DNA from: a virus
Lineage: Duplodnaviria; Caudoviricetes
Strand: one strand, 5' to 3'
Virus record (IMG/VR): IMGVR_UViG_3300021387_001774
Location: 199,687-263,686 of that record
Length of the DNA: 64,000 nt
Positions 19,354 to 57,878 of the stretch are shown piece by piece. Within the stretch, counting starts at the first letter, position 1. Each line of letters opens with the position of its first letter. The position numbers were made by a program, and so were the translations under genes. A model generated the notes under the pieces. It searched no databases, was not told where the DNA came from, and was given only the letters and a program-made list of their open reading frames with translations.

Positions 19354-19481
19354 TAGTCCTGAATTAATTAAATCGTGGGGGGTGAAATGCTCCCACGATT
19401 TAATTTTTTTAATATTTTTTTAATTATATATTATATTAATGTAAAAGGATCGTTGATCCTTAAATATTTTAACCAAAAAGT

Positions 19482-19552
19482 ACCTGAGTAGGAGAAATGA
19501 AAGGGTCGCCTAGAGAAAGGTCTACTATGTTATAGGGATAATCACAAAGGAG
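19482..19552 (+). promoter_or_regulatory. conserved structured 5' leader RNA, copy A
   Basis: ACCT-GAGTAGGAGAAATGAAA-GGGT, hairpin, CTA, hairpin, GGATAA; other copies at 30656, 46426, 47032 and 57801. Confidence 0.8.
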
Positions 19553-19557
19553 CAATT

Positions 19558-20163
19558 ATGAAATATACTGCTAAGACAAACGGAAAGATTACTTATGATG
19601 TTAAGGCAACAGACAATGCTACAGGCGTCATTACTAATCTTTGGAAAAAGATCTCAGGCATTATTTCAAATTCAAAAGAAGACACCAGTACCCAAAAGGT
19701 TGAAAAACCTGAAGGGGGGTTGATCGCTGGTGGTGTTTTCGAATGGAATGTCGAAGCAAATCTCGATATTACAGTCGAAGAAATGGCTGAGTTATTTAAG
19801 ATCAGCAAGGAGAATGATCTCCATGCCTGGGATCTTCTCAAAACCGCCGGAAAAGATCTCGTAAAGGGATCAAGAGTCCTTCTCAACGAATTCAAGGCAC
19901 AGGGTCCAGAATGGATGGACGCTGTGCACTCCATGGACCTCATATCTGAGGATCAGGAAAAGGAGCGTGAGCTCCATAAGTTCAGAAATGAACGTGAGCT
20001 CGATGCCGAGATTAAGAAGGCTGGCTGGACTCGTAAAGGTTCATTCTGGTATGAAAATGAGACAGAGGGTCGTAAAACCTCAGTCCATTTCAACGGCTTC
20101 AAGAAGGACAAAAAGGATGAACCTCACAAGGGTTCATTCGACAACCTCAACGACGAGGAGTAG
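19558..20163 (+). CDS. hypothetical early cassette protein
   Basis: AAGGAG RBS; GC higher than flanking genes. Confidence 0.85.
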   Translation: MKYTAKTNGKITYDVKATDNATGVITNLWKKISGIISNSKEDTSTQKVEKPEGGLIAGGVFEWNVEANLDITVEEMAELFKISKENDLHAWDLLKTAGKDLVKGSRVLLNEFKAQGPEWMDAVHSMDLISEDQEKERELHKFRNERELDAEIKKAGWTRKGSFWYENETEGRKTSVHFNGFKKDKKDEPHKGSFDNLNDEE

Positions 20164-20300
20164 GATTTCTCCCTCTGTAAAAAGAGGGAGTTAGACTAAA
20201 AAACGGAGGAAGAGGTAGAGAGATTTACATCTCTCTACCTCTATTTTTTTTCTTTTATACTTAAAGAAAGACAATTCTATATACGAAAAGGTACTATTTT

Positions 20301-21008
20301 ATGCGTAAACTAAATGAATTAACAACAAACAAGATGGTAAATTTAGTATCTAAAGAAACCAAAAATGGCAATGTAATTATATCTATGGAAGATTCTAAGT
20401 ATTACTATTTACCATTTGATAAATCGTATTTGGATCTTAGTGATCCTAAAATACGTACTTCTTTTATAAAACATGTAGAGAAAATTGTTAGAACTAGTAA
20501 ATTATATAAGAAATATATTAATTATCTTAAAACTGATATTGGATTAACACATTGTGCAGTATTTGGTAATATTGATGCTAAAAAAGGAGATAAGACTAAA
20601 ATAGAAATGCATCATGGACCAGTATTTACACTTTATGATTATGTAAGTATTGTTCTTGAGAAATATATTACTGAGAAAAAAGATATTAATACATTTGATA
20701 TTGCTGATGAAGTATTAGATCTTCATAAAAGAAAATTAGTACAAACAGTAATGTTATCACAATCTGTACATAAATCAATGGATAATAAAAAATTAGCACC
20801 ATTTATTTCATTAGATATGACATTTGGTGATTTATTTGGTTTTATAAAAGAATATGGAAGATATTTCTCTCCGCAACACAGAGCTGATCTTAAAATATAT
20901 CTTAATAAACATATTACTAATTCTAATATGGATTTGAATATGTTTAAACCAATATTTACAAAATACAATATTAAATTTGTAGATAAACGATTAGGAGAAC
21001 CAACATGA
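20301..21008 (+). CDS. late protein with degenerate HNH-like motif
   Basis: CAVFG...IEMHHGP...LSQSVH; late promoter at 20270. Confidence 0.65.
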   Translation: MRKLNELTTNKMVNLVSKETKNGNVIISMEDSKYYYLPFDKSYLDLSDPKIRTSFIKHVEKIVRTSKLYKKYINYLKTDIGLTHCAVFGNIDAKKGDKTKIEMHHGPVFTLYDYVSIVLEKYITEKKDINTFDIADEVLDLHKRKLVQTVMLSQSVHKSMDNKKLAPFISLDMTFGDLFGFIKEYGRYFSPQHRADLKIYLNKHITNSNMDLNMFKPIFTKYNIKFVDKRLGEPT

Positions 21009-24000: not shown

Positions 24001-24139
24001 CTATGATAAGATTGGAGTAACTGAAAAAACAAATATTCATGCTGCGGATTATATCGAAGACTCGATGAAATTACGTGGTATTCTTACAATAACTACATCT
24101 TCAGGAGAAAAGAAGGTATATTATGAAAAAGATAATTAA
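21005..24139 (+). CDS. large virion structural protein (baseplate wedge-like)
   Basis: 1044 aa in a late operon, next to a baseplate-like gene; function inferred. Confidence 0.6.
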   Translation: MSFESVYRSRQGVGEITKISDFIGSLVIKNQYEANKAETSESLYEYIKYHGAYTKTDDFTDYALEDRRLYKDFAYGYLRTINKSYAFDKSILNTITEFRIDTLNKRLDIKDPLITDYLTALRLARIYMYDEKNLYYRQFLGKPSPLSEPIWVINKDVGIDGFTKVEDLSSPPIPTYIYYSKDPNSVENNFILLGQLSSWTKIDEETGNEVPIADEFYFLNYIKIEEISDKDTTPLTYNFYILQNHIAEIIKDHPDEYYLRFIGSGFTPFYLRSLENYSIIKYDNTVLSNTELFYFFKAYDKAKKQVVLDYINGFDSKQPLYNLLMIQNLLYYTVINYSNSYIERYSVGIYTKENCDDILSSYGYDSLINVSDLSIKQRIVRNLNELISNKGNNYILEIILNKILQDPNVELKRYYLEKKYRVKDTDASIDIDTTKGLENSISLVFREVPALSIQDSHSSADKYRDYDQFVDNDDMWGGITSNDSNDVKITKKEYIKKKLISSNFSSILTKYITLTRTIDIQESQRSLRDMIYMMLKYINEYYSDEFFKLKINFDKYSVTPAGLFAALCWTQQMKNSKNLISDSGLEAEDVVQNNRFDDADVICYDECVITSSVVFRKMGLLSVDINNIENNMIIINGKPVKVMDISPEIASWKVIDFIKENPDLFVELLKDIDIDGTTIPTARFTDVKLMDGVVSEKGILTMEEAPKDGFKHLVDYNEQIDDFLVHFRYYENGEQLGEITAKTTFAELVMDYKNQYPNLIDKITKKLQKSYDFREFQAWQYMLQQSRTNNSIGFIFKGYHRFTDFLDYVESNGLIDYLNTVIPVRNGRYKLSDVIFAQNEINTAFKTWVTDSFSTLVYTGSMNDDGTVNTASDSSFVNDMKLLFDEFLSVFSQLYSVDYDYSFGGGAETGGLYLQLFYNPISTLIKDSYRDKIGIYGGLKSNSEDNFEDKIELKHTYTTEKTDSFYDNINNNVEIDEDDNVILDDQFKYEASTHMGESFYDKIGVTEKTNIHAADYIEDSMKLRGILTITTSSGEKKVYYEKDN

Positions 24140-25157: not shown

Positions 25158-25481
25158 TTAAACTTTAAGATAGAGTAGAAATACTCTATCTTAAAATTTC
25201 TGTTCAAACCCCATGTCTAATTATATATTATATTAATGAACACATATATAAAACATCTGTTTCATAAGCCTAAATGTGTTCAAGGGGGTGAATTAATATG
25301 GATACAGATGTAGAGATTGACATCGAAGGTTATATTGAATCTAATCTATAAAGATTGATTCGACCTTCGATGAGAAATTTTATTAAAGAAAGGGATCAAA
25401 TGATCCCTTTCTTTTTTTTAATTATATATTATATTAGTGAGTGGGAAAACAAAGAAATATATCCTACTAAGGGAGAAATTT

Positions 25482-25730
25482 ATGTTAAAGTTGAGAACGA
25501 TCTTAAAGTACACGTATGGAATTCCTTATACGTATAACTATGATCTAGGTTCGAGAGAATGGGTTCGAGAAGATGGATTGGTCACATTTACAACTTCGGT
25601 AATAGTTCAATTAATAAATGAACGTCGTTTGAAGGTTGTAGAGCAAAACTTTAAAACTCATCTTATAAAAGACGGAGAATCTTTAATCGAAGCCATTCAA
25701 ATGTCTAGATTATGTAATAAGATCGCTTAA
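25482..25730 (+). CDS. small early protein (start ATG 25482)
   Basis: AAGGGAG RBS. Confidence 0.7.
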   Translation: MLKLRTILKYTYGIPYTYNYDLGSREWVREDGLVTFTTSVIVQLINERRLKVVEQNFKTHLIKDGESLIEAIQMSRLCNKIA

Positions 25731-25833
25731 TATCACTACAGCTTTTAAAGAAAGTGGATTAGTTCCACTTTCTTTTTTTTTTAATTTAATCCTTAACCGA
25801 AAACATCATAATATACAAACATTGAGGTAAATT

Positions 25834-27525: not shown

Positions 27526-27528
27526 TGT

Positions 27529-30561: not shown

Positions 30562-30655
30562 TATTATAATAGTAAGAGGGATTTACTCCCTCTTACTTAT
30601 ATTAAAACTGTTCAAGATTATATATTATATTAATAGAATAAACTGAAAAAGAAGT

Positions 30656-30716
30656 ACCTGAGTAGGAGAAATGAAAGGGTCACCTAATGAATAGGTCTAC
30701 TATGCTATAGGGATAA
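30656..30716 (+). promoter_or_regulatory. conserved structured 5' leader RNA, copy B
   Basis: Nearly identical to copy A, with a compensated P2 (ACCTA/TAGGT). Confidence 0.8.
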
Positions 30717-30738
30717 ATTCATAACATAGGAGGAAAAT

Positions 30739-31485: not shown

Positions 31486-31501
31486 TTCCTAATCTTCTTA
31501 A

Positions 31502-31558: not shown

Positions 31559-31602
31559 CTATAAAAATGACAACCCTATATACTAATTAATGAGGATTTG
31601 TT

Positions 31603-34600
31603 ATGAATGATATATTAACTGATGCGGTTAAACCGTTTAAATTGATACGTCCTAAAACAAATAAGGGTGAACCACATCCTCTTATTACATATACTAAACA
31701 ATTATCAGGAAACATTTTTTTTAATGTCGGATCTTCTACAGACGATATAAAGAATGGTCTTATGAATCTTTTTGGACCAAATGGAGCACAGAAATCTTTT
31801 AAGAGATATTATTATCCAAAAAAGATTGTATGGAAACCTTCACTTTATGTACAACCTAGAGAAGTAACGGTATTAAATCCAAAAGAAAAGACAGAATTTG
31901 TTATGAAAAATATTCCTAGGTTTAATGGTATGGTTAGAGATAGAGTAATAGATAATAGAAATCTTATTGTAGATTTTTCAGATCTTATCGCTAAAGCTGT
32001 ACCAACTGAAAGAATGTTTATGCAAAAACCTGATGTTCTTCAGTATGTAGAAAAGATTTATCCAGAAATTATTTGTTATGCTTTATTTAAGAATGATAAA
32101 CATGATACAAGTAAAGATATTGATGTAGAAGAGGGAACGGAAGCATTTACAGAAAAGGTATTTCAGTCTTCTTCAGTTATATCTATGGGTAAAACTGCTA
32201 TAGGTCTTGAACAAGCTGGATTTGATAAATTTATTATTTCTATTCCTTATACACTAAAAGCTACACGTTTCTTAACTCCTCAGTTCTTAAAAGGTTCTCT
32301 TCCTATACAACGTAACATGAAGATCAATCCAGATCTTATTTATCAATTATCTTTGATAAAGTTTGTTTATGAATGTTATGCTGCATACAATGGAGGAGCT
32401 TCTAGTTCTGAATTTGTTAAAGAAGTTATTAGACGTAATGTAGTATTCCATTTCTATTGTGAAACTGGTGTAGGTTTTACTATAAATTTAAGAGAACTTA
32501 AATCTTATCTCAGATATAATACAGATAGATTCCTTAAACTTTTTATAAATAGACTTAAAGTATTAACTATGTGTAATACTGGTGCTCTTAAAACTTCAGA
32601 TATCGATGAAATCGATAAAGATGAAGTTAATGAAGAGATAGAAGGATACTATAAGAAATCTTCTGATATTCTTGATGAAGAAAATAGTAATACTATAAAG
32701 TCTAAACTTAAAAAGACTTTTAAATCTATTCTTAAACATGATGATGTTTTAAAAACTATAGCTGATGCAAAAAATAAGAATGGGGAAGATGAAGTAATAG
32801 AATTCCCAGAAGAAGTACAAGATACTTCACATAAGATGGCTCATGGTATTGCTATAAAGAGTAAAGCAAAATATGATAAAGATTCTATGAATAAACTGGC
32901 AGATATTGAGAAACAGTTTAGTAATAAAAATACAACAATTGTTTCTCATGATAAAGAAGAAGCATCCGATATTACTCTTACAGATTCAGATTTTGATGAA
33001 ATTCTTAATAGTAACGATGGTGAAACTGAACAAGTTGATGAAACGGAAATCGATGATGAAAATCTCGTCGAAGAATCAAATAATACAGATGAATCAGATT
33101 TTTCTTTTGATGATGAAGATAAAGAATTTGATGAGATGTACGAATTTGATGAGACAGAAACTACGGATGATGACATAGAGGAAGAACCAGAATATGTAGA
33201 AATAAAACAACCTAAAACTGGTCCTATTAAACTAGAAAAAGTAGAAAATAAAGAAGTTTATAGAACACCTGCCGAACAGAAACGTTTGAATAATCTTAAA
33301 GAGAAATATAAATCTGTAGAGCTTAATGGTAAAAAGATTGAAGATATTATTGGTGATTCTTCTAAAATCGAATTAACTAAAAGTTCAGAGACTATCACAG
33401 ATAAACCAAAGACTAAAGATCAAGATACTATGAATATGAATCTTATGGATTTTCAACGTTCATATATTGAGAATAATTATCAATCCGATATAATTAATGC
33501 TGTACGTTCTCTTTCTATTAATAAAGAGAATCCTCTTTATATTACTGGTGCAAAAGTAAATGATTCTTCAGATCAGTTTAACGATCGTTATTCTTATGAG
33601 TTTACTCTAGAGGATGAGAATAAAAAGAAACATACGCTCAAGTTTGATATTCCAAAGATTGACGAAACTGGTAAGATGAAAATCAATGGTACAGAATATT
33701 ATCTTAAAAATCAGTTGATTAGAAAACCAATTGTTAAGATTGGTCCAGATAAAGTTTATGTAACTACTCAACTTAACTCTTTCCAAGTAATGCGTACTGG
33801 AATTATGCTAAATCGTGGTTCTGAAGTTATTCGAAAACTCTTTGGATTATATTTAGACGGTAAAGAAAATGTTATTGTAGAACGTGGTGATTGTGAATTG
33901 GATAATGCACCATATCTTACTACGCTCGAATATGATGTACTTGCTAAATCTTACTTTATGATTAAAATCAATAATGAAAAGAGTAAGTATGGTGAATATG
34001 TAGAGATATTCTTCTCACAGAAAGCTATTCGTGAACGTATAGAAAAGCATAGTATTAATACTGGATATAAAGATAATGTACTTCCAGATAATATCTTACC
34101 AATCGCTATTAACTATACGACAAAAACCCTTGTTACCATAGATATAAATCAAAATAATAGTGTTAATAGTACTATTATAGCATTATTGAATGAATATCTT
34201 AAAGATCCTCACTTATTGGAATTCGTTAAGAGTGTAAAGACTCCTAAGAAACGTCTTTCTACTAAAATAGAAATTCAGTCATTTACTGTACCTCTTATAG
34301 CTTTCTTGAATTATCTATTTGGATGGGATAGAGTTTCTAGTTATTTCAAAGAAAATGAAATAGAATTCTCTGATAAACTTATTAAGAATACTAATAAAAT
34401 GAGTATAAAGTTTTATGATGGGTATCTGTATTATAATCAGTATCCTATTCGTGGAGCTTTGTTCTTAAATGGTCTTACAGAAATAGATACAGAGAATTAT
34501 AAGTACGAAGATCTTAATAATCAAGGTCTATACATAAATTATACATATAATCGTTTTAAAACAAGAAACGTTGTTAAAGGTTGGATAACTGCTAAAGAGA

Positions 34601-37909: not shown

Positions 37910-38041
37910 AATAAAGATGGGGTATATTTACCCCATCTTTTTTATTTATATATTATATTAATGAAAGATTCGTTGTATCTTATTATAATAATTATTGAAG
38001 TAGAGATGATACTACTATAAACATAAGGAAGGAATTGGAAT

Positions 38042-45578: not shown

Positions 45579-46312
45579 AAGCTATACGTAAAAAATATGA
45601 AACTCAATTGTATGCTCTTATGGATGATATGGATCCATCAGGATATAATACAGAACTATACAAAGAAACTTTTTCCAAAATGAGTAACAAAGATTTTATT
45701 CAAATGTGTAAAAATATGATTGCTAATGATGATCAAAATTTCTCATTTGAAATAAAGCAATTAGAAAAACCAAAAGATGGTGGTATTTCTCTAGATAAAA
45801 TAAAGAATATTGCCAAGAAATATAATATAAAACTTGTTGAGTATATGTTTATGCCATTTAGAAATCCTAATGGTGAGCCTATGTGTACTTATACAAGAGT
45901 ACCTATAGTTTATGCACCAATACGACGTTTCTTTCAGCAGATGCTTCAACACAAGAACTCTATTTCAAATAACAATACAAAGATTAATCCTATTACTGGA
46001 CAGGTAACTTCTGAAGATAAAACTGCTTCTACAACAAATATTCAGACTTATGCATTAACTATCACTAATAGAAAAAATGCTCTTAAAGAATATTTAGGAC
46101 CTCGTTCTGATGATAATGTTGCTAAACAAGAAATGTTAACTCAGATAGAGAATACGGGTAGATTTAGACTAGAAGATACAAATATTCAGACTCATAATAA
46201 ACGTTCTATAAAAACTTCTGAAGTATTTGCTAAAGCTGCTGGAGTTATTATGGAATTCGCTGGAAATGATTATAAGATTAATCTTGATGAACTAGAAGTT
46301 GAACATGAATAA
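45557..46312 (+). CDS. phage RNA polymerase beta subunit, C-terminal fragment
   Basis: QQMLQHK...NPITGQV...ALKEYLGPRSDD aligns with the beta C-terminal conserved blocks missing from 31603..36450. Confidence 0.7.
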   Translation: MLPDEKIKAIRKKYETQLYALMDDMDPSGYNTELYKETFSKMSNKDFIQMCKNMIANDDQNFSFEIKQLEKPKDGGISLDKIKNIAKKYNIKLVEYMFMPFRNPNGEPMCTYTRVPIVYAPIRRFFQQMLQHKNSISNNNTKINPITGQVTSEDKTASTTNIQTYALTITNRKNALKEYLGPRSDDNVAKQEMLTQIENTGRFRLEDTNIQTHNKRSIKTSEVFAKAAGVIMEFAGNDYKINLDELEVEHE

Positions 46313-46406
46313 AAGAATACTGGGTATTTATTACCCAGTATTCTATAACTACTGTTAAACCCCACTATCTAATTATATATTATATTAATGAAGTAAGTCG
46401 TATGAC

Positions 46407-46501
46407 TGAAACATAATAATTATAAGAGGGATAATAAGAGAAATAAAACCCCACCTCAGAGAAGAGGTCTACCGAAAGGAGATATAAACACAAGGGAAGA
46501 A
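46407..46501 (+). repeat. 95-bp perfect repeat with 57782..57876 (structured leader copy D)
   Basis: Direct sequence identity. Confidence 0.95.
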
Positions 46502-46505
46502 AATT

Positions 46506-46910
46506 ATGAAGAAAATTGAAGATGGAATCCATGACGTATCAAACTACATGTTGGCTAATCGCCAGATATTCACTGTAGAAGAAATGGAAGAGTTGAGGAA
46601 TCAATTTCTCAATATAAAGCCAGGTTATTATGTTAAACTGTGGGTTTTCAATGATGAACTATGTATACAGGTAGCCGGCGATTTTATTCTGTTAACGAAG
46701 GTCGATAAGACCGACGCAATCTTCAATCATATGGATTTAGGATTTAAAATCCGATCCATACATGGAGATTCTCTGTACGGAGAAATCGTGGATGTCTCAA
46801 AAGATATCTACGATACTAACGGTTCCCGGGTAACGCCTAAGGATTGGTTATATAGCCTCGATCATAATAGCATAAATTATGATCGAGCTTTAACTGGCCA
46901 TCGTCTTTAA
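46506..46910 (+). CDS. hypothetical early cassette protein
   Basis: Between leader D and trailer copy 2. Confidence 0.8.
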   Translation: MKKIEDGIHDVSNYMLANRQIFTVEEMEELRNQFLNIKPGYYVKLWVFNDELCIQVAGDFILLTKVDKTDAIFNHMDLGFKIRSIHGDSLYGEIVDVSKDIYDTNGSRVTPKDWLYSLDHNSINYDRALTGHRL

Positions 46911-46920
46911 TCTCCAATAA

Positions 46921-46976
46921 ACAGTAAAACTCTTTATAGAGTTTTCTGTACCGGATTGCTACGGTTTCTTTTTTTT
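46921..46976 (+). terminator. conserved 3' double-hairpin trailer, copy 2
   Basis: ACAG-T-AAAAC-TCT-TTAT-AGA-GTTTT-CTGT + ACCG/CGGT + T tract. Confidence 0.8.
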
Positions 46977-47031
46977 AATTATATATTATATTAATGAGTA
47001 AGATCGTATGATCTGAAAAATAAAATATTAA

Positions 47032-47104
47032 AACCTAAGTAGGAGAAATGAAAGGGTTGCTTCGGAGATGAAGCCTACCAGAAATGGGGATAAAGCACAA
47101 GGAG
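47032..47104 (+). promoter_or_regulatory. conserved structured 5' leader RNA, copy C
   Basis: AACCT...GGGTT, GCTTC/GAAGC, CTA, CCA-GAAA-TGG, GGATAA. Confidence 0.8.
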
Positions 47105-47111
47105 TTATATT

Positions 47112-47846
47112 ATGACTAAAGAAGAAAAGGGTATTTCGAAAGACGCAGAGTTTTCAAAACATTTTTTAACAGTATTTTCAAGTGTTATACATGCATTTAA
47201 AACTCTTCCAAAAGATGTTAAAGAAAAAATTGAAAAATCCGTCGATGAATGTTTGGTAACGTGTTCTCCTTATTCATTAACATATTTTGCTAATACATTA
47301 AAAAGATGGCAAACAAAAGATATTGTCGAAAATGAAAAGAAGGAAACGGAAACAACTGAAGATAAAACTATAACAACTTTGGCAGACTTTATTAATGAAA
47401 AGAATGAAAAGTGTATAGAATTAGGAACACCAAGGGGCGGTAATTATGAACCTTCGGATATTAAAGCCTATCGAACTCTTGCTTTAATATTGATTGACAA
47501 AGATTGTTGGTGTGATGGGTGGAAGAGAGATGCAGATTCAATGGTGCTCATTTTATCTGAAAAAGGTACACAAATGATGAGAGAATGCGTCGAGATTCTT
47601 GGAAGCGAATCATTAGAATCAAATCCATTTATTATTGATCCAGTTATTTCTTCAAGAACTTATATACAAATTAAAGGATTTTATAAAACAAACATGAAAA
47701 TTGTATTGGGTCGAAGAAATATTTCTATTGATACTGAGAAAGAATTACAGTTCATAATTGATAGACTTTGCATGTTAGGAAATACATCTAAGGAACAAAT
47801 AGTGGATTCGATTAATGACTTGAAGTCACGCTTCAACAGTTTCTAA
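47112..47846 (+). CDS. hypothetical early cassette protein
   Basis: AAGGAG RBS. Confidence 0.8.
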   Translation: MTKEEKGISKDAEFSKHFLTVFSSVIHAFKTLPKDVKEKIEKSVDECLVTCSPYSLTYFANTLKRWQTKDIVENEKKETETTEDKTITTLADFINEKNEKCIELGTPRGGNYEPSDIKAYRTLALILIDKDCWCDGWKRDADSMVLILSEKGTQMMRECVEILGSESLESNPFIIDPVISSRTYIQIKGFYKTNMKIVLGRRNISIDTEKELQFIIDRLCMLGNTSKEQIVDSINDLKSRFNSF

Positions 47847-47972
47847 AAATTCTAATTAAAAGAAAGGGCTTCGTCCCTTTCTTTTTTATAATTATTTTTA
47901 CAATTATATATTATATTAATGTAAAACCTTAGAGTTTTACAAATCTTAATTTAAGGGTGGGTAAAAGGAGAA

Positions 47973-48308
47973 ATGGTGACATTCGTTTTTAGCCATAAGA
48001 GTCAATCTGACGCGATCTCAAGTGCAGAGTATTTGCACAAAGCCATGCAGGGCGACAAAGCATATGTTAACGGTGACATATGTATTTGTGTTTCCACAAT
48101 TGATGGAAAAACAAAGAAGCCAACCTGCGAAGACGGCAATTTGGATTATGCCTTTAACGGAAAGGTATTACATCATTGTGTTCTTCTGGATGTGGGCACA
48201 ATTGATAATCCAGTAGAACCAATTGTAATGGTTCTAGACCATCCATTGGACGATAAGTATAACAGTACTTACGTTCATAAGACTTATGGTCTTGATGAGA
48301 TCGACTAA
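47973..48308 (+). CDS. hypothetical early protein
   Basis: AAGGAG RBS; early promoter at 47902. Confidence 0.8.
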   Translation: MVTFVFSHKSQSDAISSAEYLHKAMQGDKAYVNGDICICVSTIDGKTKKPTCEDGNLDYAFNGKVLHHCVLLDVGTIDNPVEPIVMVLDHPLDDKYNSTYVHKTYGLDEID

Positions 48309-48412
48309 CACACCAATTTTAAAGCCTAGCGAAATTGCTAGGCTTTATTTTTTTGTTTAAAAGGTATCGGAAAACATATTTATATACCTTATCTTTTAAT
48401 ATGGAGTAAAAT

Positions 48413-50851
48413 ATGGCATTAAAGAACCATTTGACTACAAAAAATACAAAAGATAACCATCACGAACTAACAGCCTTTTTCTATATAAAAGGTTCTAAAG
48501 ATTATCCAGTAGGACAATCTATTTCTGAACCTTTTGGATATGATGTAAAAGAAACTGATGGTGAATCTTCGATTAATAGTGAAAGACCTATTTTCGGTTC
48601 TTCAATCAGGGATCTTTATATAAACTATCCTGATTTACTAGAAGTCACAAATAATTATAGTGGTTATGAAGATACAGATAACTTAATTAGAAGTAATCAA
48701 ACTATTTCACTTAATGGTACTAGACCAAGATTGGATAGAGATGAAGAATACATTAGTACTCTTCTTATTAAGAATGCATCTTCTGATGAAGCATATAAAA
48801 CAATTTATCCCAACTATGAAGCTAGTTCTAAAGAAGAACTTATTGAAAATCTTAATGGTGAAACAACTAAAGTAGATTATTTGATTAATCCTTCTGCTAA
48901 AAAGTTTAATTATCGTACTTGTGTATTCTGGCAGAAGATTTTTACATTACTTGAATATATCAAGAAATATGAATCTCACATTTATGCTGATGAACAGGGT
49001 AATATTCCTATGCCTGGATTCTTTGATGATAATAGTACTTATTGGTACAGAAATCCTCAACAGGCTATTAACAAGGTATCTTCATTACCTACATTAGCAA
49101 AATATATTGCACTATTTATTCCGCATGTTATGCCAAGTAATAGTGCTACACAAAATATTGCTGATCTTGTACCTAAGAGACATCTTTTTAATCCTGTACG
49201 TACACGTATTATTGCTGGTGATGGAGAAGAAATTTCTACATATAAACTAGACGATAATTATAAATACGGAGAAGATGAGAACTTTAAAAAAGAATTTTCT
49301 ACAGATGTTTATCTTGATCAATTGTGGAATAAACTAGACGCCAATGCTAATGATGATGGTAAAGAAATGATGTTTGATGGTCTTGATATTCGTATTACGG
49401 ACCTTTATAATATTTCTTGTTCATTCTCAGAGCATACTGGTCGTCTTACAAAGATTAGATTTGAATTAGGTTATAAACATCTTACTGACGTTGAAGGTCA
49501 GAACTTTACAGAAGAAGAAGATAATTATGAAACCTGGGCATTCAATATTTATTTTGATCCAGATGCTTTCATAGATAGTGATACAACTACTGAACAATTC
49601 CCAGTATGGACATATAATGATCTTGACTTCGATAATGAATTTAGAGGTCAAGAATATCAGTATGACTATACAAATCCTCTGTTCAATAAGTTTGATAATG
49701 ACTATGCAAACATTCTTGTTCCTAATACAGAACCAGATGGAACACCAATATTGAATTCTATTCATGGTAAGTTTGTTGCTACAGCAGCTGAAATTGAATC
49801 TCAGATGTTGAAAGCTGTTCTTGATAAAACAAAGTCTGGTGGATATACTAACTATACAATTTATCCAGTTAAACGTATTTCTCCGTATATTGGAGACGAT
49901 GGTGAGGTTGTATGGGATCCTTCTAACGCTATCGATCAGAAGTTCTATATCTTCTATAAGAACGTTCCTCCAACATCAGAACAGTGTAATACAGCTGTAT
50001 ACAATTATCTTCTTACCTTACATAGTGATACAAATAATTGTCATGGTGAACACAGAAATCCTGATACAAATAAAGTAGAGTTTATTGGTCACGATCCAGA
50101 AAATATTGCTGAGACAATTAACTTCTTAGCAAATATGTATCCTACATTGTTTGAAGCTACAGAGATTTATATTATCCCTGCAGATAAAAAACATTGTTCA
50201 AATGGTAATAATGTAGATTTGGCAGATTATAGTGATCCTCAAACATACTTTAGCGGAACTACACCAAAACGTATTAGAGAATCTATTGTAAATACAAAGA
50301 AAGAATTTGAACAATTCTCATTTACACAGACTGGTGAACCACAGAATTCTAGTTCTACTACTCTTAAATATTATCCAGTTGAAGTATTTAAGATTGGTTC
50401 TATTGAAGGTTCAGATAATGGTTCTACATCATTTAAGTTTGACTTCCCTTGGTATGCTGTAAATAAGGGTGGTAACTTAGCTGATAATTGTCTTACTACG
50501 CTCGAAGGTTTCCACGATTATAAACAAAAGATGTTTGCTAATAGTCAAGATCCTACAAGTATGGCAGATATATTCCAGATCATTATGATTCTTCTTACTA
50601 GAAATATGTTTACTGGTCCAAGTAGTATTAATATGCATGATCCTATGAAATCGCGTTATGGTAATATTCTTGGTATTCCTATTACGTATAGTATAGATAA
50701 TGAAAAGGATACAACTGTTTCTGATAAGTATTATAATAAAGCAACATTTGTTATTAATGCTGTTAAGTTTATAGTATATGCTCAGAATGGTAAAGACTTT
50801 GGTTCAACTACTGGACGTTCTATTAATATTACTAGTATAGGAAGTATTTAA
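48413..50851 (+). CDS. large late (virion structural) protein
   Basis: 812 aa; late promoter at 48373. Confidence 0.75.
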   Translation: MALKNHLTTKNTKDNHHELTAFFYIKGSKDYPVGQSISEPFGYDVKETDGESSINSERPIFGSSIRDLYINYPDLLEVTNNYSGYEDTDNLIRSNQTISLNGTRPRLDRDEEYISTLLIKNASSDEAYKTIYPNYEASSKEELIENLNGETTKVDYLINPSAKKFNYRTCVFWQKIFTLLEYIKKYESHIYADEQGNIPMPGFFDDNSTYWYRNPQQAINKVSSLPTLAKYIALFIPHVMPSNSATQNIADLVPKRHLFNPVRTRIIAGDGEEISTYKLDDNYKYGEDENFKKEFSTDVYLDQLWNKLDANANDDGKEMMFDGLDIRITDLYNISCSFSEHTGRLTKIRFELGYKHLTDVEGQNFTEEEDNYETWAFNIYFDPDAFIDSDTTTEQFPVWTYNDLDFDNEFRGQEYQYDYTNPLFNKFDNDYANILVPNTEPDGTPILNSIHGKFVATAAEIESQMLKAVLDKTKSGGYTNYTIYPVKRISPYIGDDGEVVWDPSNAIDQKFYIFYKNVPPTSEQCNTAVYNYLLTLHSDTNNCHGEHRNPDTNKVEFIGHDPENIAETINFLANMYPTLFEATEIYIIPADKKHCSNGNNVDLADYSDPQTYFSGTTPKRIRESIVNTKKEFEQFSFTQTGEPQNSSSTTLKYYPVEVFKIGSIEGSDNGSTSFKFDFPWYAVNKGGNLADNCLTTLEGFHDYKQKMFANSQDPTSMADIFQIIMILLTRNMFTGPSSINMHDPMKSRYGNILGIPITYSIDNEKDTTVSDKYYNKATFVINAVKFIVYAQNGKDFGSTTGRSINITSIGSI

Positions 50852-50865
50852 TAGAGGTGTAATAT

Positions 50866-51660
50866 ATGATAAAGAATATAGAATATTCTAAACCATACAA
50901 ATTACAACTGTTACCATTATATGGTGCAAAAGATTATAATTGTTTTGTTATAGGTGAAACAAATATTGATAATGTTGCAAACAACCAAGATCAATATAAC
51001 ATTTATGAAACTTATTTCGCTCCTTTAGGATATGGATTAGGCTCATATTATGCAGCTATAACAGAAAAAACAAAAATTTTTATTTGTAATGAAATAACTT
51101 CATTTGAACCATTAACTGTTGAAAGAGATAAGAAAATATTTATTCCCGAATCTCTAATCAATAAAAATGAATCATATGAATATGTAGAATGTGGAAATAT
51201 TTCTTTTACTATTTATCCTGTTATCAAGTTATTTGATTCTATAGATAGTCAAGAAAAGTTTCTAAATGAACTTAAAAATAAAATGCGAAAGAAGCTTGGA
51301 GAGCTTATTGAATTTAGTATTCTTAGTAATGAAATCGAATCATATGTAGAACCAATGTATCTTACTCGTGAAGAAATCACGGATATAGAAAATAGACGTT
51401 CTGCTATGTATAAGAAACATATTGACACTCAAGAATCACTAATTAAGTTTAAGGATGTCAAAGATCATCAATATAATGAATTGATATCTAAACTTAAACA
51501 CAGTATAGATGATAATATTCGTAAGAGCGATGATCTTGCTACAACGAAACTTAATCTAGAACGTGTTATTCAAGAATATGAAGCTATCATAAGAGATCTA
51601 ACTAATCAACAGCTTAGATCCCCAGCTCCTAAACCTGCAGAACCTGAAGAAGGTGAATAA
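50866..51660 (+). CDS. late protein with C-terminal coiled coil
   Basis: GAGGTG RBS; same operon. Confidence 0.75.
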   Translation: MIKNIEYSKPYKLQLLPLYGAKDYNCFVIGETNIDNVANNQDQYNIYETYFAPLGYGLGSYYAAITEKTKIFICNEITSFEPLTVERDKKIFIPESLINKNESYEYVECGNISFTIYPVIKLFDSIDSQEKFLNELKNKMRKKLGELIEFSILSNEIESYVEPMYLTREEITDIENRRSAMYKKHIDTQESLIKFKDVKDHQYNELISKLKHSIDDNIRKSDDLATTKLNLERVIQEYEAIIRDLTNQQLRSPAPKPAEPEEGE

Positions 51661-51745
51661 TAACTAAACAGAGGGTAGAAATACCCTCTGTTTAATATAT
51701 TAAAATACTAAGAATATAACCATATACTTATTTAAGGAGATAAGA

Positions 51746-53605
51746 ATGTCTGAAAATATTGAAGAAAAGAAAGAAACTACAGACGTTACTGTTATTGAAC
51801 TTCCTGTTCCAGAAACAGAAAAGGATTCCTCTGTAGAAGAAGTTGATAAAACTATTAATGAAGCTACAGCTAAAGAAACTTTTGACATTAAACCTACTCT
51901 ATCTGCAGATTCAGAGCAAGTAAAGAAAGTAACAGAAGAGCAAAAAGAATATTTGTTAAAGAGAGCCAAAGAAGCAAATATTGATGTAGACAAGTTGGAG
52001 TATGAAGAAGATGGTGTTACTCCTAAAGTTACAGATGAAATGCTCGAACTCTTTGCTATTTATTCTAATGGTATTTTTGATAAAGAGTTCTTCCAGATTT
52101 ATATAGATCAAGCTAAATCTATTATCGATCAGTATAAAGACTTCAAGTCTATGGTTGATAGAGGTCTTACTGATGAAGACGATATGGAATACTATTCCGG
52201 TTTGGCAAAGGGATATGAAGAAGCTCGTCTTATCATTGGTCTTGTACAGACTGAATACACTAAGATGTGTAAAGATTTCGAAGAGAATAAAATCTTTGAA
52301 AATCAGTCTAAAGCTATTACTCTTTCTCTTCTGAGAGATTATTTCGTTAATGAATTTAGACTAGTAGATTCATGGTTGCATCCAATCCATATAGATCCAA
52401 GTCCAAAAGAACTTGCTGAATTCGATAGAACTAAAGAACTGGAAGATAGTATTAGAAAGAGAATGTTTGTTGCACCTATATTTAAAGAGTATGCTCATAA
52501 AATGCTTATTAGGTGTAAAGCTGATAATTCTTTGAATTCTTTTGAAAAGAAGTTCACCGATTCAAACTTTGAATCACTTATTTATGGTTTGAATTCATAT
52601 ATTAAGAATAGTGGTGAGACTCATGATATTGATCTTAAGACAATCATTACTAGAGATATGAATAATATGAACTTCGTTAAAGCAATTTTAACTACGATGT
52701 TCATTTATAATAACGATGAATTTATTAAGGATATCAATGTAAGTGAAGAATCTTTGAATACTCTTAAGAAGAAGATGAATCCAAACGATGTCTATACAAA
52801 GACTGAAGAGAATATTTTCACTGAGTTATATAAGAACTTCTCTACAATTAAGCAATACTTTACTGATAAAACATTTATTACGAGGTTATTTATTATCGTA
52901 AGTAAAAATGTTACTTCAGATAAGATCTTTAAGATTGTCGGTATTGATCTTAATGAATCATATGAAAAGTTTATTATTAAGTTCTCAGAAAAACTTCCAG
53001 ATATTACTGGTACAAGTATTATAAGATGGGGTCAGTATTATTCATATCTTAAAAAGTATGAATTCTATCATTCTGTAAAACTCCTTAAAGAATATATTGA
53101 AGGAGAAGAAAAGAATGAAAAGACTGGAGAAACGTTACTTATTGATTGTATTAGTACCTATCTTGTAGAGTATCTTAATATGATTTATGGTAAGTTGCTT
53201 TCTGATCTCGATATATTTGTAAAAGAAAACGTATATTCTGCACCAATGAGACAGACTATGTTTGCCATGCTTACAAACAATATTCTTATGCAACATGAAC
53301 TTGGTTTCAAGTGTGATTTCAATCCTGAAACTGAATCATCTGGAGATGGTTTGTATGAACTTGCTCAGAAAGTATTTGGTGAACAGTATAAGTTTATCAT
53401 TGTTGATAAAGAAAAGGATATTCTTCTTAAAGAAGTAAATCTTACAGAAACAAGAAAACATTATTTCGAAGCAGTTAACGAACTTATGGAGTTGATGTTA
53501 TTCAGTTGTGACTGTTTGATGAAAGGTGATTACGATAATGGTTGTGAAAAGACGTTTAGTAATACTAAAACTAAGAAAAATAAAAAGAAACACAATCGTA
53601 AGTAA
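51746..53605 (+). CDS. hypothetical protein, acidic N-terminus and basic C-terminal tail
   Basis: AAGGAG RBS; 619 aa. Confidence 0.8.
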   Translation: MSENIEEKKETTDVTVIELPVPETEKDSSVEEVDKTINEATAKETFDIKPTLSADSEQVKKVTEEQKEYLLKRAKEANIDVDKLEYEEDGVTPKVTDEMLELFAIYSNGIFDKEFFQIYIDQAKSIIDQYKDFKSMVDRGLTDEDDMEYYSGLAKGYEEARLIIGLVQTEYTKMCKDFEENKIFENQSKAITLSLLRDYFVNEFRLVDSWLHPIHIDPSPKELAEFDRTKELEDSIRKRMFVAPIFKEYAHKMLIRCKADNSLNSFEKKFTDSNFESLIYGLNSYIKNSGETHDIDLKTIITRDMNNMNFVKAILTTMFIYNNDEFIKDINVSEESLNTLKKKMNPNDVYTKTEENIFTELYKNFSTIKQYFTDKTFITRLFIIVSKNVTSDKIFKIVGIDLNESYEKFIIKFSEKLPDITGTSIIRWGQYYSYLKKYEFYHSVKLLKEYIEGEEKNEKTGETLLIDCISTYLVEYLNMIYGKLLSDLDIFVKENVYSAPMRQTMFAMLTNNILMQHELGFKCDFNPETESSGDGLYELAQKVFGEQYKFIIVDKEKDILLKEVNLTETRKHYFEAVNELMELMLFSCDCLMKGDYDNGCEKTFSNTKTKKNKKKHNRK

Positions 53606-53687
53606 ATTATAATTTTTATTAATTATATATTATATTAATGGCTAAGACAATTTGTTTTAGCCATATTAAACCATCAGGAGGCCAATC

Positions 53688-54947
53688 ATGGCAAAGAAAG
53701 AGGTTGCAGAAGCTAAGGCAGCGGAAACATCTGCAAAAAAGGAAAAGGGACCTTCAGCATTCGTTAAATTCGATATGAATCGTCCTAAAACGATCAACGT
53801 CACAAAGGATCGCTTTGTGACAACTGTCTTGTACAAAGAGCTCAACATCATGTTCGAAGCTCAGGTCAAGACAATTGATCTGGCGGGCACAAAGGATGCG
53901 ATCATTAAATCAGTGAATCGTATCATTAAGCTCATGAGGTGTGAAGGAGTACAAAGGTACTATTCAACCGATGAGCTCAAAGCCGACAAGCCTAATTACA
54001 TCATGTCGGTCTTGGTACCATATTTTGGAAGACAAGAATTGGTAATCAAGAACATCATGAATATGCTTAAACAGCTATCTGATGAGGGCGACGTATTATG
54101 TAAAGGTTTCATCAAAAATGTTGCTCTGATCAGTGTAGACACAACTAAAGAGCAGAAAAATGTGTTCATCAAGGGATTTGTTTCCGCATCCCACGAAACG
54201 ATCACTAAGAAAAGGTTTATCGATGGTAATCCTAAGATTAGTAAGATCGAAAAGAACAACATTCGGGGTCAGACATTCCTCTCTAATTCAGTTTGGAATT
54301 CGGACGAATCCTATAAGGATATTGGGAACTATAACAGGTTCTCTATGATCCTTAACAGAATTTCCATCTATGATCCATACGATGGAAAGGTGTTCACAAA
54401 TTCTGTTCCTTTCAAGAAGTCTTTTAAGACTATCGCATATCAGATCGTTAATAACGAATCTGATAATACGTATAAATTGATTAGGAACGAATGTACGATT
54501 TCTCTCTGTCTTAAAGATAGGGAAGATAGTACAAGTGAACGCGTGAAAAAAGATGCGATTGGTGTTTATGTTGAAAACAACGAGACATCTATGAACATCA
54601 ATGATTTCAGGGATATCTTCTATCAGGACAAGAAATTCTTGTTGACAAACAATGAATATCTTAGAATCGATGAGACCGCTGTTGAAATCGATATGTTTAA
54701 GAACGATATGGATTTCATCAACGAAGACATCTTTAAGAGTCTTGAGAAAGAAGATGTTGCTGTAGAAGAAAAACCAAAGACTAAGAAGAAAGAAACAAAA
54801 AAGAAGATGGAGAAGAAAACTGAGGAACCAACATTCAATGAAGTGGGTTCCCTTGCAGATATCGAGGATGTCAATATCGATATTGATAATCAGGTATTAG
54901 CAAGTGATGATCAGACTGAACAGGAACAGCCTGAAACATCAGAATAA
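53688..54947 (+). CDS. hypothetical early protein with K/E-rich and acidic tail
   Basis: AGGAGG RBS; early promoter at 53621; C-ending codons. Confidence 0.85.
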   Translation: MAKKEVAEAKAAETSAKKEKGPSAFVKFDMNRPKTINVTKDRFVTTVLYKELNIMFEAQVKTIDLAGTKDAIIKSVNRIIKLMRCEGVQRYYSTDELKADKPNYIMSVLVPYFGRQELVIKNIMNMLKQLSDEGDVLCKGFIKNVALISVDTTKEQKNVFIKGFVSASHETITKKRFIDGNPKISKIEKNNIRGQTFLSNSVWNSDESYKDIGNYNRFSMILNRISIYDPYDGKVFTNSVPFKKSFKTIAYQIVNNESDNTYKLIRNECTISLCLKDREDSTSERVKKDAIGVYVENNETSMNINDFRDIFYQDKKFLLTNNEYLRIDETAVEIDMFKNDMDFINEDIFKSLEKEDVAVEEKPKTKKKETKKKMEKKTEEPTFNEVGSLADIEDVNIDIDNQVLASDDQTEQEQPETSE

Positions 54948-55077
54948 CTAACTGATGGTTAAAACATGGAGAGGGGGTAAAACCTCTCTCTATGTTTTTT
55001 TTTTATTTTTTTTTTCTATTAGAGAAAGTTTTATTTATATATTATATAAATGATACAATACATATAGGAGGAAAAAT

Positions 55078-56256
55078 ATGAAGTTGTATGATAATGTTAA
55101 GATCAATGTAGCCATGATACCTACATTGAAAAAGAAGGTTTCAAAGTCAAAGATCGATGATACAAAAACGATCAATGACTTTGGGGTGATTAATAATCTC
55201 TTATACGGTAAGATCATTACACACTCTGGTCAGTTCCATGCGGACGAAATCATGTGTGTTGCACTGATCTTGTTAATAAGAGACACCATCAAGTTTAAGC
55301 AAACCGGTGGTGATATGATTCACTCTGATCTTTATAGGTGGAACTATGAAAAGATCAGAGATACGGTTATACGTCGTCCGCAAGGATTGAATCCAGATGA
55401 TCCAAAAGACGTCAAATTGTATAGAGACTGTTTGGTGATTGATATCGAAAATGGTCATTTCGATCATCACCATAAAAACCAGGCAGAAGCACCTCGTATT
55501 GAAAAAGGTGATTCCGAGACAGATAGAGTTGCTTCAATCGGAGTATTGTGGCAATACCTTGGTCATTTGTTTGATATCGAAAGAGATGAAACTGTCTCTA
55601 AAGATGTTCCTGATATAAATGTCTATGATAGAATGTGGGAGAATTTCTTCCTCCCTATTTCTCTACTGGACGTTTATGGACCAAACAAATTTACAAGTCC
55701 AGTCTCTCAGATAATCAGTAACATTAATGGTTATACTGAGTTTGACTTCGACTTTGTGATTCCGGAATCAATGAACCCAGATCCGGAATACATGAAGTTC
55801 ATCGAAGCTGTTCTCTTAGCATATAAGATCCTTAGAGGACAGTTGATCAAGGAACAAAATTTTATTATTGCATTATATGGAATGGGATCTAACCCTTATA
55901 TCAAGATGAACTCTGGTGATGTTCCTAATGTTACAATTGACCAGGTACCAGAGGGAACAAAAGAACCAAAAGTAAATATCGAATCACTTAAATATATTCT
56001 TATTGACGGAGCTGATAAGCCATTAGTTCTGATTAATAAGAATCCAAGTGATCGTGATGGTTCATTTAGAATGATCTGTGTGGATTCAGAGTACGCTCAT
56101 TTTGATAAAAAGCTACTTGATAAACCTGCTAAAGGACAGATCTTCTTACATCCCGCGTTGTTTATGATCACATTTGATTCTTTGGAGAATATTGATGACT
56201 TTATGAGTCATTTGAGTTTCGATGAAGAATCTCATACGATCTGTTATATGCAGTAA
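55078..56256 (+). CDS. MYG1 (UPF0160)-family DHH-like exonuclease
   Basis: ITHSGQFHADE, DIENGHFDHH, FLHPALF. Confidence 0.85.
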   Translation: MKLYDNVKINVAMIPTLKKKVSKSKIDDTKTINDFGVINNLLYGKIITHSGQFHADEIMCVALILLIRDTIKFKQTGGDMIHSDLYRWNYEKIRDTVIRRPQGLNPDDPKDVKLYRDCLVIDIENGHFDHHHKNQAEAPRIEKGDSETDRVASIGVLWQYLGHLFDIERDETVSKDVPDINVYDRMWENFFLPISLLDVYGPNKFTSPVSQIISNINGYTEFDFDFVIPESMNPDPEYMKFIEAVLLAYKILRGQLIKEQNFIIALYGMGSNPYIKMNSGDVPNVTIDQVPEGTKEPKVNIESLKYILIDGADKPLVLINKNPSDRDGSFRMICVDSEYAHFDKKLLDKPAKGQIFLHPALFMITFDSLENIDDFMSHLSFDEESHTICYMQ

Positions 56257-56391
56257 CTAATGAAAAGAAGAGGCGTTAACGCCTCTTCTTTTTTAATTAT
56301 ATATTATATTAATGAGTACATTGTACTTATTATTAATATTATTAATCGAAGTAGAGATGATACTACTATAAACATAAGGAAGAAATGAAAA

Positions 56392-56886
56392 ATGGCAGAG
56401 AAGAAAAGAGAGTACATGAAGAAATATTATGATGATCACAAAAATGATCTCAAAGATTATCATAAAAAATATCGTGAAGCTCATAAAGATAAAGTGAATG
56501 AATATAGGATGAAATCTTATAGAAAGAATAGAGATAAAGAGAAAGAAAGATTTAAAAAATATAATGAAAAGAATAATGCTAAAATTCTTGAAAGAAAAAG
56601 GGAATATCGTAAAAATAATCATGAAATAGTAATGTTGGGTAATAGAATTTGTAAATATTATTCTCGCGATTTTTACCGTTATATTTCCCTAGAAAATTAT
56701 TTAACTATAATGAAACTAGGAGATTATTCATTAAAACGTTCTATTATGATTAAGTTAGGTAAAGGAACTATACTAGAAGATGAAGCTGTAATTTTATCTG
56801 GTATGGTATGGACCGAAGAAGATCAGAAACAATTAAATGAATATTTGAAAAGAAGTAAAAATAAAAGACCTTCTTCTAAACCTTGA
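56392..56886 (+). CDS. basic K/Y-repeat protein, paralog of 38042..38479
   Basis: Shared C-terminal block, leader and terminator. Confidence 0.85.
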   Translation: MAEKKREYMKKYYDDHKNDLKDYHKKYREAHKDKVNEYRMKSYRKNRDKEKERFKKYNEKNNAKILERKREYRKNNHEIVMLGNRICKYYSRDFYRYISLENYLTIMKLGDYSLKRSIMIKLGKGTILEDEAVILSGMVWTEEDQKQLNEYLKRSKNKRPSSKP

Positions 56887-56926
56887 TTAAATAAAGGTAG
56901 GATTATATCCTACCTTTATTTTTTTT

Positions 56927-57676
56927 TTATCCTTTTCGTTGATATAGACATTGTACTGCAAATGTTGAAGAATCTTTATAATAATCTTTTTCAAACATTT
57001 CTTCTAGTTCTTGTATTTTATTTTCTGCATCTTTAAAATCATCAAGTTTAGTATCTATTTCAATACCACCAAATACTTGTGATCCACTATCGTGTTGTTT
57101 TCGGATATAGAGATAATACTTTACTAATGCAACAAAATATTGTTGAAAGTATATCTCCATATTTTTTGGTATAGTAGAAAGAGTTCTATAAGCTTTCATA
57201 GTAACATTAAAGTTTCTATGTACTTGCTGTGGTGGATTTACTATTAATAAGTTTGGTTCTCTAAACGTTATTTGATAATATGAACGGTTATGAGGGAAAT
57301 TTGATTTAGCATTTAAGAATATAGAGTTTAACATGAAGTTTCCTCCAGTTAAAACATCAGTAGTATCATTTCCACCTATTTGATAATCTTCTATATCTAT
57401 CCAAGTAAATTTTTCTCTAGAATCTAATCCAGGAATATCAAATGAATCAGGAATTCTATAAGTAGAGAAATTATATACTCTACCACTATAATCTTGATAA
57501 GGTATAGCATCTTTTTCTGTTATACGTATATCACAAAGCATCCAATACCAATTCGAGAACCTTTTCAACGCTTCATCATACAAAATTTCATTTATAAAGT
57601 CTTCTGAAACTAAAGCAAATTGTGCAGGAGACATTTCTCTTTTAAGTTTTCTAATTAATTCTGATCTAGAAATCAT
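56927..57676 (-). CDS. late protein, possibly neck/head-tail adaptor
   Basis: AGGAG RBS; late promoter at 57718; function is a guess. Confidence 0.65.
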   Translation of the reverse strand: MISRSELIRKLKREMSPAQFALVSEDFINEILYDEALKRFSNWYWMLCDIRITEKDAIPYQDYSGRVYNFSTYRIPDSFDIPGLDSREKFTWIDIEDYQIGGNDTTDVLTGGNFMLNSIFLNAKSNFPHNRSYYQITFREPNLLIVNPPQQVHRNFNVTMKAYRTLSTIPKNMEIYFQQYFVALVKYYLYIRKQHDSGSQVFGGIEIDTKLDDFKDAENKIQELEEMFEKDYYKDSSTFAVQCLYQRKG

Positions 57677-57781
57677 AAATGTTTCTCCTAAGAAATATAT
57701 AAGATATATAGAATTGTTTCGAGGTACTGTTCAAACCCCCCGATTGATTATATATTATATTAATGAAGTAACCTGTATAGG

Positions 57782-57876
57782 TGAAACATAATAATTATAA
57801 GAGGGATAATAAGAGAAATAAAACCCCACCTCAGAGAAGAGGTCTACCGAAAGGAGATATAAACACAAGGGAAGAA
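57782..57876 (+). repeat. structured leader copy E (identical to 46407..46501)
   Basis: Direct sequence identity. Confidence 0.95.
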
Positions 57877-57878
57877 CT

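Follow-up and report, generated by a model that had tools for sequence, protein, structure and literature searches.

A covarying three-hairpin leader RNA in early-gene cassettes of an AR9-like jumbo phage

The window analysed here is the last 64 kb (bases 199,687-263,686) of the 263,686-bp virus record IMGVR_UViG_3300021387_001774 (29.5% GC; genome completeness 94%), in which five early genes are each preceded by a copy of the same structured leader RNA, a three-hairpin motif of 59-62 nt. The window encodes RNA polymerase beta-type subunits, virion proteins and gyrase B, and its source is an AR9-like jumbo phage, a member of the AR9-like clade. One of the beta-type subunits (31603-36450, + strand, 1615 aa), which served as a marker for finding relatives, has ~30% identity to a virion RNA polymerase (vRNAP) subunit of AR9; its best isolate matches, at that level, are in Bacillus phage AR9 and Listeria phage LPJP1, and it has 46 metagenomic relatives at 55-96% identity. 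An AT-rich 14-mer that occurs ~40 times upstream of genes matches the AR9 early promoter and is therefore read as a putative vRNAP early promoter. In AR9, transcription from this promoter starts at a G six bases past the core (PMC5312081), and the start sites given below are predicted from that spacing.

Five copies of the motif lie in the window, at the sites and with the paired elements (P1, P2 and P3) that an initial annotation of this DNA had reported, and two further copies, at genome positions 73522 and 90075, bring the genome to seven. The window copies are of an A or a B type, scored below with a covariance model, and they stand in the following units, where ORF is open reading frame, fourfold GC is GC content at fourfold sites, and L and G numbers denote sequences of relatives.

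19427-19440, + strand: early promoter of the vRNAP type with an AR9-like consensus; predicted +1 at 19441 (AR9 spacing from PMC5312081)
19445-19461, + strand: 5'-terminal hairpin with a GTT loop, generic to early leaders
19480-19540, + strand: three-hairpin motif, A-type, 49.7 bits
19558-20163, + strand: cargo ORFan, 201 aa, fourfold GC 0.37
20270-20283, + strand: candidate late-type promoter for the next gene, by likeness to the AR9 late consensus
30621-30634, + strand: early promoter, with no 5' hairpin after it
30654-30715, + strand: three-hairpin motif, A-type, 55.4 bits
30739-31485, + strand: cargo ORFan, 248 aa, fourfold GC 0.39; other ORFs in the same slot in L015, L037 and L144
31500-31558, + strand: conserved double-hairpin 3' trailer/terminator
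31569-31582, + strand: candidate late-type promoter before the vRNAP beta gene
46376-46389, + strand: early promoter
46396-46407, + strand: 5' hairpin with a GTAT loop, generic
46426-46484, + strand: three-hairpin motif, B-type, 86.5 bits
46506-46910, + strand: cargo ORFan, 134 aa, fourfold GC 0.39
46919-46976, + strand: conserved double-hairpin 3' trailer/terminator, with the next early promoter directly after it
46982-46995, + strand: early promoter
47001-47014, + strand: 5' hairpin with a GTAT loop, generic
47031-47092, + strand: three-hairpin motif, A-type, 67.7 bits; in L144 this variant stands before a homologue of the 57879 cargo
47112-47846, + strand: cargo ORFan, 244 aa, fourfold GC 0.20, the most ameliorated
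57751-57764, + strand: early promoter
57771-57782, + strand: 5' hairpin with a GTAT loop, generic
57801-57859, + strand: three-hairpin motif, B-type, identical to the copy at 46426
57879-58448, + strand: cargo ORFan, 189 aa, fourfold GC 0.34
58457-58514, + strand: conserved double-hairpin 3' trailer/terminator
58525-58538, + strand: candidate late-type promoter for the next gene

The motif lies 19-39 nt downstream of the inferred +1 and 17-24 nt upstream of the AUG, with the Shine-Dalgarno (SD) sequence 6-13 nt 3' of the motif end, and the distance to the AUG is held as tightly as the distance to +1. Every true copy, where the contig reaches the promoter, sits between an early promoter and the ribosome-binding site, and 7 of the 36 early units of the genome carry one. 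The core pattern had no match in 200 Markov-resampled windows, and the covariance model scored the seven genome copies at 50-87 bits and the next match in the genome at 16 bits. The initial annotation had also listed a covarying 5' hairpin with a GTAT loop. That hairpin is not part of the motif: its loop is GTT at 19445, it is missing at 30635, and similar hairpins occur in many early leaders that have no motif.

The fold itself is compact. P1 consists of four pairs, of which the fourth is U-G/U-A or A.A, and is extended by one more pair (columns 1-28) on the other side of a 1-nt bulge; it carries a loop of 16-17 nt with the invariant core A-N-UA-R-GAGAAAU-RAA, in which the R can pair with the U and so close a GAGAAA hexaloop. 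P2 has five pairs, one of them an invariant C-G, and a loop that mostly contains GNRA, and P3 starts with C-G, U-R, a bulged A and C-G, followed by 1-3 pairs and usually GAAA, with AUA after the hairpin. These three elements are the ones proposed originally, but the CTA that had been drawn as a linker is not one: because its C and U pair with the R-G of RGATA around the bulged A, P1, P2 and P3 abut directly. The predicted folding energy is -6 to -13 kcal/mol.

The stem changes first noticed among the window copies are real, but these copies alone split into two subfamilies, and relatives were therefore sought for independent covariation, their loci being fetched via the polymerase, two cargo families and pattern scans. 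True copies were found on 12 other contigs of relatives (vRNAP 57-97% identical where known). In the resulting alignment, A11, which holds 21 motif copies (18 distinct), pairing holds in 97.6% of cells and 8 of the 14 pairs have changed on both sides, whereas slid controls pair at 26-49%. A control that preserves relatedness, run over all 1724 column pairs, returned 11 that were fully pairable with a double change, 8 of them in the proposed structure. Placed on the tree, the two sides of a pair change together (~20 events), and pairing is kept through seven versions of P1 and twelve of P2. We conclude that the three-hairpin fold is under selection, and the U-G/U-A exchanges at several pairs point to the transcribed strand. 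Column pair 9-32 covaries too, though perhaps through a single event. Two further elements were rejected as conserved features, namely a pseudoknot between the loop and CUAC, which is possible in A-type copies only, and a closing helix for a four-way junction, which exists only in B-type flanks. There is no conserved pairing between motif and SD, the best SD duplex falling at varying motif positions and being weaker than the motif fold, and the fold has no U-tract.

The motif is a real, undescribed structured RNA family that falls in no tested family. A cmscan against Rfam 15 gave no match at E<=10 for any of the five window copies and none at gathering score in seven related loci, and covariation grew as sequences were added; the initial proposal of a cis-positioned structured leader RNA is thus borne out. 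A pattern scan of 185,579 prokaryote genomes in GTDB returned 8 matches, none behind the early promoter and the best at 23.5 bits, and hence no true copy, while neither the region nor the leader had a BLASTN match among GenBank phages. The covariance model found nothing above 22 bits in AR9, LPJP1, phiR1-37 or the more distant clade members G001, G002 and G006-G012, most of these records being fragments and one of the clade members 99% complete. From these searches the motif appears to be confined to one subclade of phages. A first pattern scan of viral contigs gave four matches, which were dismissed as chance, and a search of the literature available for this analysis found no CMfinder motifs in jumbo phages. 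Of the sequence words in 46200-56100, 6-9% occurred in two gut metatranscriptomes, which is no evidence of expression, and a search for antisense RNA to the leaders yielded only scattered 13-mers, none of them shared.

Several observations concern individual copies and their surroundings. A box consisting of ACTGTT and then a C- or G-run lies upstream of many B-type promoters (window 46355-46375 and 57725-57750, genome 73450 and 90005, L076 and L154) and may be the left end of the cassette described below. L148 has tandem motif cassettes at 9380-9441 and 9923-9984, the second with a shortened promoter and no 5' hairpin. The copy at L151:620-682 lacks the P1 5' strand and half of the loop, its downstream protein being identical to that of the intact L150; this is either a natural deletion or an assembly artefact.

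Promoter, leader, cargo and trailer make up a cassette, of which the motif forms the 5' half. Behind most motif genes, within 10-20 nt, stands a conserved double hairpin with a U-tract, and all five of these trailers in the genome end motif units (5 of 7 motif units versus 0 of 29 other early units, p=5.6e-5, an association explicable by shared inheritance). The trailer covaries independently, has no Rfam match and ranges more widely than the 5' motif: it is present in L084, L142 and L157-L166, and wider relatives have it without the motif. Of the two units that lack it, the one at 19558 ends in two ordinary terminator hairpins (~20168-20250) and the one at 47112 is followed by an ordinary single-hairpin terminator. 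Every motif unit is monocistronic, the next gene either having its own early or late-type promoter or being convergent. The late promoters are pattern predictions, likened to the AR9 late consensus: RACAA-N3/4-TATATA has 13 genome-wide matches, most of them just 5' of an SD and AUG (for example window 20270, 31569, 38534, 58525 and 62169). The P1 loop can pair with the U-rich tail of the trailer over 8-9 nt at -7 kcal/mol, compared with -5.6 kcal/mol for ordinary tails, and the tail type that pairs is found in 5 of 7 motif units and 4 of 26 other units.

Trailers show variety of their own. A second family, with a long stem and a GAAA / UGAGUA internal loop that is S-turn-like, ends in the same U-rich tail (L148:10560-10620, + strand; L126 ~7850-7920, - strand). 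At L159 ~10860-11350 (+ strand) an early promoter is followed by ~430 nt of non-coding-looking sequence that ends in a trailer, a possible non-coding RNA.

What the cassettes carry is exchanged. As originally stated, the five window cargo ORFs have no BLASTP similarity to one another. The slot before the vRNAP beta gene holds ORFs of 248, 76, 135 and 152 aa across four close relatives. In the 30739 family, leader and flank are 95% identical and the ORF 58% identical at the nucleotide level, with homologues at 42-47% amino acid identity, and homologues of the 57879 cargo (63-74% amino acid identity) occupy different loci, where A-, B- and C-type motifs precede them. Cargo is also distinct in composition. 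When the 193 ORFs are ranked by fourfold GC, six of the top seven are motif cargo (0.36 versus 0.105), and relatives agree, with a median of 0.34 over 21 cargo genes, other early genes standing at 0.18 and all remaining genes at 0.09. At cargo fourfold sites T is down to 0.32 from 0.54, C and G are three- to fourfold more frequent, and A is unchanged (0.36 versus 0.38). The high GC persists even though fourfold sites differ by 51-71% within the 57879 family. Among cargo codons GGG, AGG and CCC are raised and TAC barely so, a pattern on which optimal-codon usage was rejected as an explanation of cargo GC; codon use is flat, unameliorated and foreign-looking. Adenine-specific mutagenesis of the diversity-generating retroelement type was likewise ruled out, since A stands at 0.36 versus 0.38 and T is the depleted base. 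The sense strand of ORFs of at least 300 aa has a strong T excess genome-wide (T 0.54, A 0.38, C 0.05, G 0.04 at fourfold sites), which would fit uracil-containing DNA as in AR9, yet a dUTPase is encoded.

The cargo ORFs are unrelated and mostly have no assigned function. Pfam, PHROGs and the ESM Atlas were blank, the structure prediction for the 19558 cargo is poor (pLDDT 51), and the model of the 57879 cargo reaches a Z of only ~5 to ACT/KH/RRM-like folds. A MYG1 nuclease, found twice (L017 and L038), is the only cargo with an assigned function. In the window, a MYG1-like nuclease gene (55078-56256) has a 26-nt leader with no motif, whereas its L017 and L038 homologues carry one, and the motif is therefore optional and not tied to one pathway.

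The closest organisational parallel is with the promoter-early stem-loop (PeSL) cassettes of the T4-like phages RB49/phi1, PST and nt-1, which shuffle ORFans (PMC2839356, PMC4122927). In both systems a repeated early promoter, stem-loops, an SD and a terminator flank ORFans, the cargo at one locus differs between close relatives, and units are transcriptionally insulated. However, the stem-loops of PeSLs are terminators placed within a sigma70 promoter, either overlapping its -35/-10 boxes or lying between them. In the present phage the promoter serves a phage multisubunit RNA polymerase of the AR9 type, and the three-hairpin fold, with its invariant loops, is transcribed, lies downstream of +1 and is matched to a separate 3' trailer. 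AR9 itself shares a near-identical AT-rich early consensus, long untranslated regions (UTRs) and an uncharacterised motif predicted in its early UTRs (PMC5312081), but our model finds nothing in AR9, LPJP1 or phiR1-37. The 5' mRNA stabilisers of phage SP82 and Bacillus, which depend on ribosome binding to the SD (PMC7509114), offer a looser precedent in that a purine-rich early-leader element may protect downstream mRNA; in the present case an SD-like AGGAG occurs only in A-type loops, and the element is a folded, covarying domain. Finally, the A-type loops, AGUA...GAA around the R-U-closed GAGAAA loop, together with the GNRA within most P2 and P3 loops, recall an S-turn (loop E/sarcin-ricin) with GNRA-capped helices. 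We suggest such a module for A-type P1 loops (AGUA/GAA) from their sequence; B-type (AAUA/AAA) and C-type (AUUA/AAA) loops differ.

From the observed structure and cassette we infer a function in gene expression. In the reading we favour, at a probability of roughly 0.42, the motif would be a cis-acting mRNA stability or translation module, engaged by the ribosome or by a protein, within PeSL-like shuffling early-gene cassettes. The vRNAP would transcribe the cassette immediately upon infection, and the compact fold would probably present its purine-rich loop and bulges to the 30S subunit or to an RNA-binding protein, leaving the SD free and blocking 5'-3' decay after cuts in the AU-rich linker. 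Output from imported genes would thereby be raised, while the trailer would terminate and protect the 3' end and insulate the neighbouring late genes. Homologous recombination between repeated flanks, for which the genome encodes a UvsX-like recombinase, would exchange cargo as in the PeSL cassettes of T4-like phages. A free SD downstream of the motif fits the placement of a 5' mRNA stabiliser or translation enhancer. Other compact folds, including tRNA-like leaders, occupy the same leader slot in relatives, and together with the optional use of the motif before MYG1 this favours a general-purpose, optional expression part.

Several points weigh against this reading. A second stabiliser may be superfluous, since most copies already come with a 5'-terminal hairpin, and the folding energy of the motif is modest, which means that tertiary contacts or a partner would be required for stability. 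Cargo codon use is flat and not optimal, and hence does not demonstrate high expression. Searches for cargo donors outside the clade found none, so the imported status of the cargo is argued from base composition. The invariant loop residues, moreover, would suit a repressor site equally well.

A translational operator is accordingly the alternative that we take most seriously, even though we regard it as unlikely. A phage protein would bind the invariant loop and bulged-A helix and shut early genes off after the first minutes; RegA-type control in T4 is an example of such translational shut-off of early genes. Invariant unpaired residues and bulges are typical of protein sites, a motif end 6-13 nt before the SD lies at the edge of the 30S footprint, the motif is restricted to a single phage clade, and AR9 has a transcript group that peaks at 5 min alongside its uncharacterised 5'-UTR motifs (PMC5312081). 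Yet the SD and AUG lie outside the structure, a candidate binding protein was looked for and none was identified, and the same gene, MYG1, occurs with and without the motif. Sequence does not separate an operator from a stabiliser or enhancer, and we hold the latter to be the better bet. A more ambitious and rather doubtful idea is that 5' fold and 3' trailer form a matched RNA signal pair, possibly touching through the purine loop and U-rich tail, in a gene-capture and expression system whereby a foreign ORF would be recognised as RNA by a phage factor and then favoured for export, for looping in translation or for copying back into the genome. Somewhat less plausible still is an address tag in general, in which the motif, alone or with the trailer, would mark transcripts for export from an early infection compartment, 5'-3' looping or RNA-mediated gene capture. 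The co-occurrence of motif and trailer would fit such a tag, as would the loop-tail complementarity, the sharing of one tail by a second trailer of unrelated sequence, and the deviating base bias of the cargo; export from EPI (early) vesicles is, moreover, still an open question (PMC13282480). These vesicles are described for Chimalliviridae, however, and not shown for the present phage, and the motif is present in just 7 of 36 early units although all of them would need export. Ordinary tails already reach -5.6 kcal/mol, and the trailer is present in relatives that have no motif. With loop and tail both invariant and the trailer also occurring alone, loop-tail pairing stays a minority reading. 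Nor is there adenine-specific loss on the sense strand. Tubulin was not found in the genome, and no reverse transcriptase was found either, PF00078 being absent at E<=1 from a genome 94% complete, with a divergent or host enzyme still possible.

The remaining explanations are improbable to differing degrees. The put RNA of HK022 is ~60 nt long, forms hairpins and lies just behind early promoters, and the initial annotation had suggested a put-like antiterminator, an RNA that would bind the vRNAP and confer resistance to pausing or termination. Size, hairpins and promoter-proximal position do agree, the range coincides with one vRNAP clade, and such an activity could help elongation through foreign sequence. 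Nevertheless, the motif has three helices and no Rfam match, it is tied to the ribosome-binding site as tightly as to +1, and its best-conserved partner is a strong terminator. Because the gene after each monocistronic unit has its own promoter or is convergent, with no promoter-less genes beyond the terminators, antitermination is unneeded, and we put little weight on this proposal. About as improbable, or marginally more so, is a self-cleaving ribozyme or processing signal that would yield a new protected mRNA 5' end: invariant residues are concentrated in loops and bulges, and tRNA-like folds stand in the same slot in relatives, but no Rfam ribozyme matched at E<=10, and the motif is three separate hairpins lacking a conserved pseudoknot or closing helix. 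The suggestion that it is a riboswitch, an aptamer for a host metabolite or ion, draws on its place in the 5' UTR, its covarying stems and invariant unpaired residues, and the possible S-turn module. Against it stand the lack of a conserved anti-SD or terminator overlap, the unrelated cargo, mostly without an assigned function, and the absence of a true copy in the pattern scan of 185,579 prokaryote genomes, and we rate it very unlikely. Least likely of all is a mere DNA repeat spread by recombination, whose fold would be incidental or act in DNA. The B-type copies are near-identical and flanks are homogenised between relatives, but all seven P1 and twelve P2 versions pair, where slid controls stay below 50%; wobble pairs are strand-specific, and stems of 4-5 bp are too short for cruciforms. 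This last explanation is already largely refuted.

Other structured leaders are found in the clade. A second class is a hairpin of 5 bp whose 8-nt loop is purine-rich and which lies immediately 5' of a shared ribosome-binding site. It has ~10 copies in the genome (window 37999-38028 and 56350-56379 among them) and occurs in L037, L144 and G001, where its stem covaries (AGTAG/CTACT versus GATAG/CTATC); the genes behind it encode lysine/arginine-rich paralogues, and it tends to occur together with a terminator type of its own. A third early leader, ~100 nt long, which combines a conserved internal element, CUGGAG...GACCC, with a covarying hairpin whose loop is GUAU (L017:3602, + strand; L039:4556, - strand; L126:8440, - strand), had no match in Rfam. 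The tRNA-like leaders, in which a GNRA tetraloop replaces the anticodon, lie directly behind an early promoter and before the ribosome-binding site (L120:9499-9576, + strand; L126:7368-7445, - strand). In the window, five ordinary tRNAs (Asn, Met, Leu, Lys, Gln) lie between 8330 and 18545, and short tRNA-like Rfam matches at 3758-3818 (61 nt) and 17649-17713 (65 nt) were left uncalled by ARAGORN. An anaerobic ribonucleotide reductase together with strong SD sequences suggests an anaerobic Firmicute as host.

The phage group in which this structured RNA family occurs has hardly been studied for control at the RNA level. The family bears on the translation of early mRNAs by host ribosomes in jumbo phages that have their own polymerase and on how these phages acquire and exchange ORFans, and it marks the genes of most foreign composition, which are candidates for host takeover or anti-defence. 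With a size of 60 nt and known compensatory variants, the motif is directly testable and might find use as a portable element for gene expression. A role solely as a stabiliser in PeSL-like cassettes would be a moderate gain, whereas joint action of the 5' and 3' elements on RNA would amount to a new mechanism.

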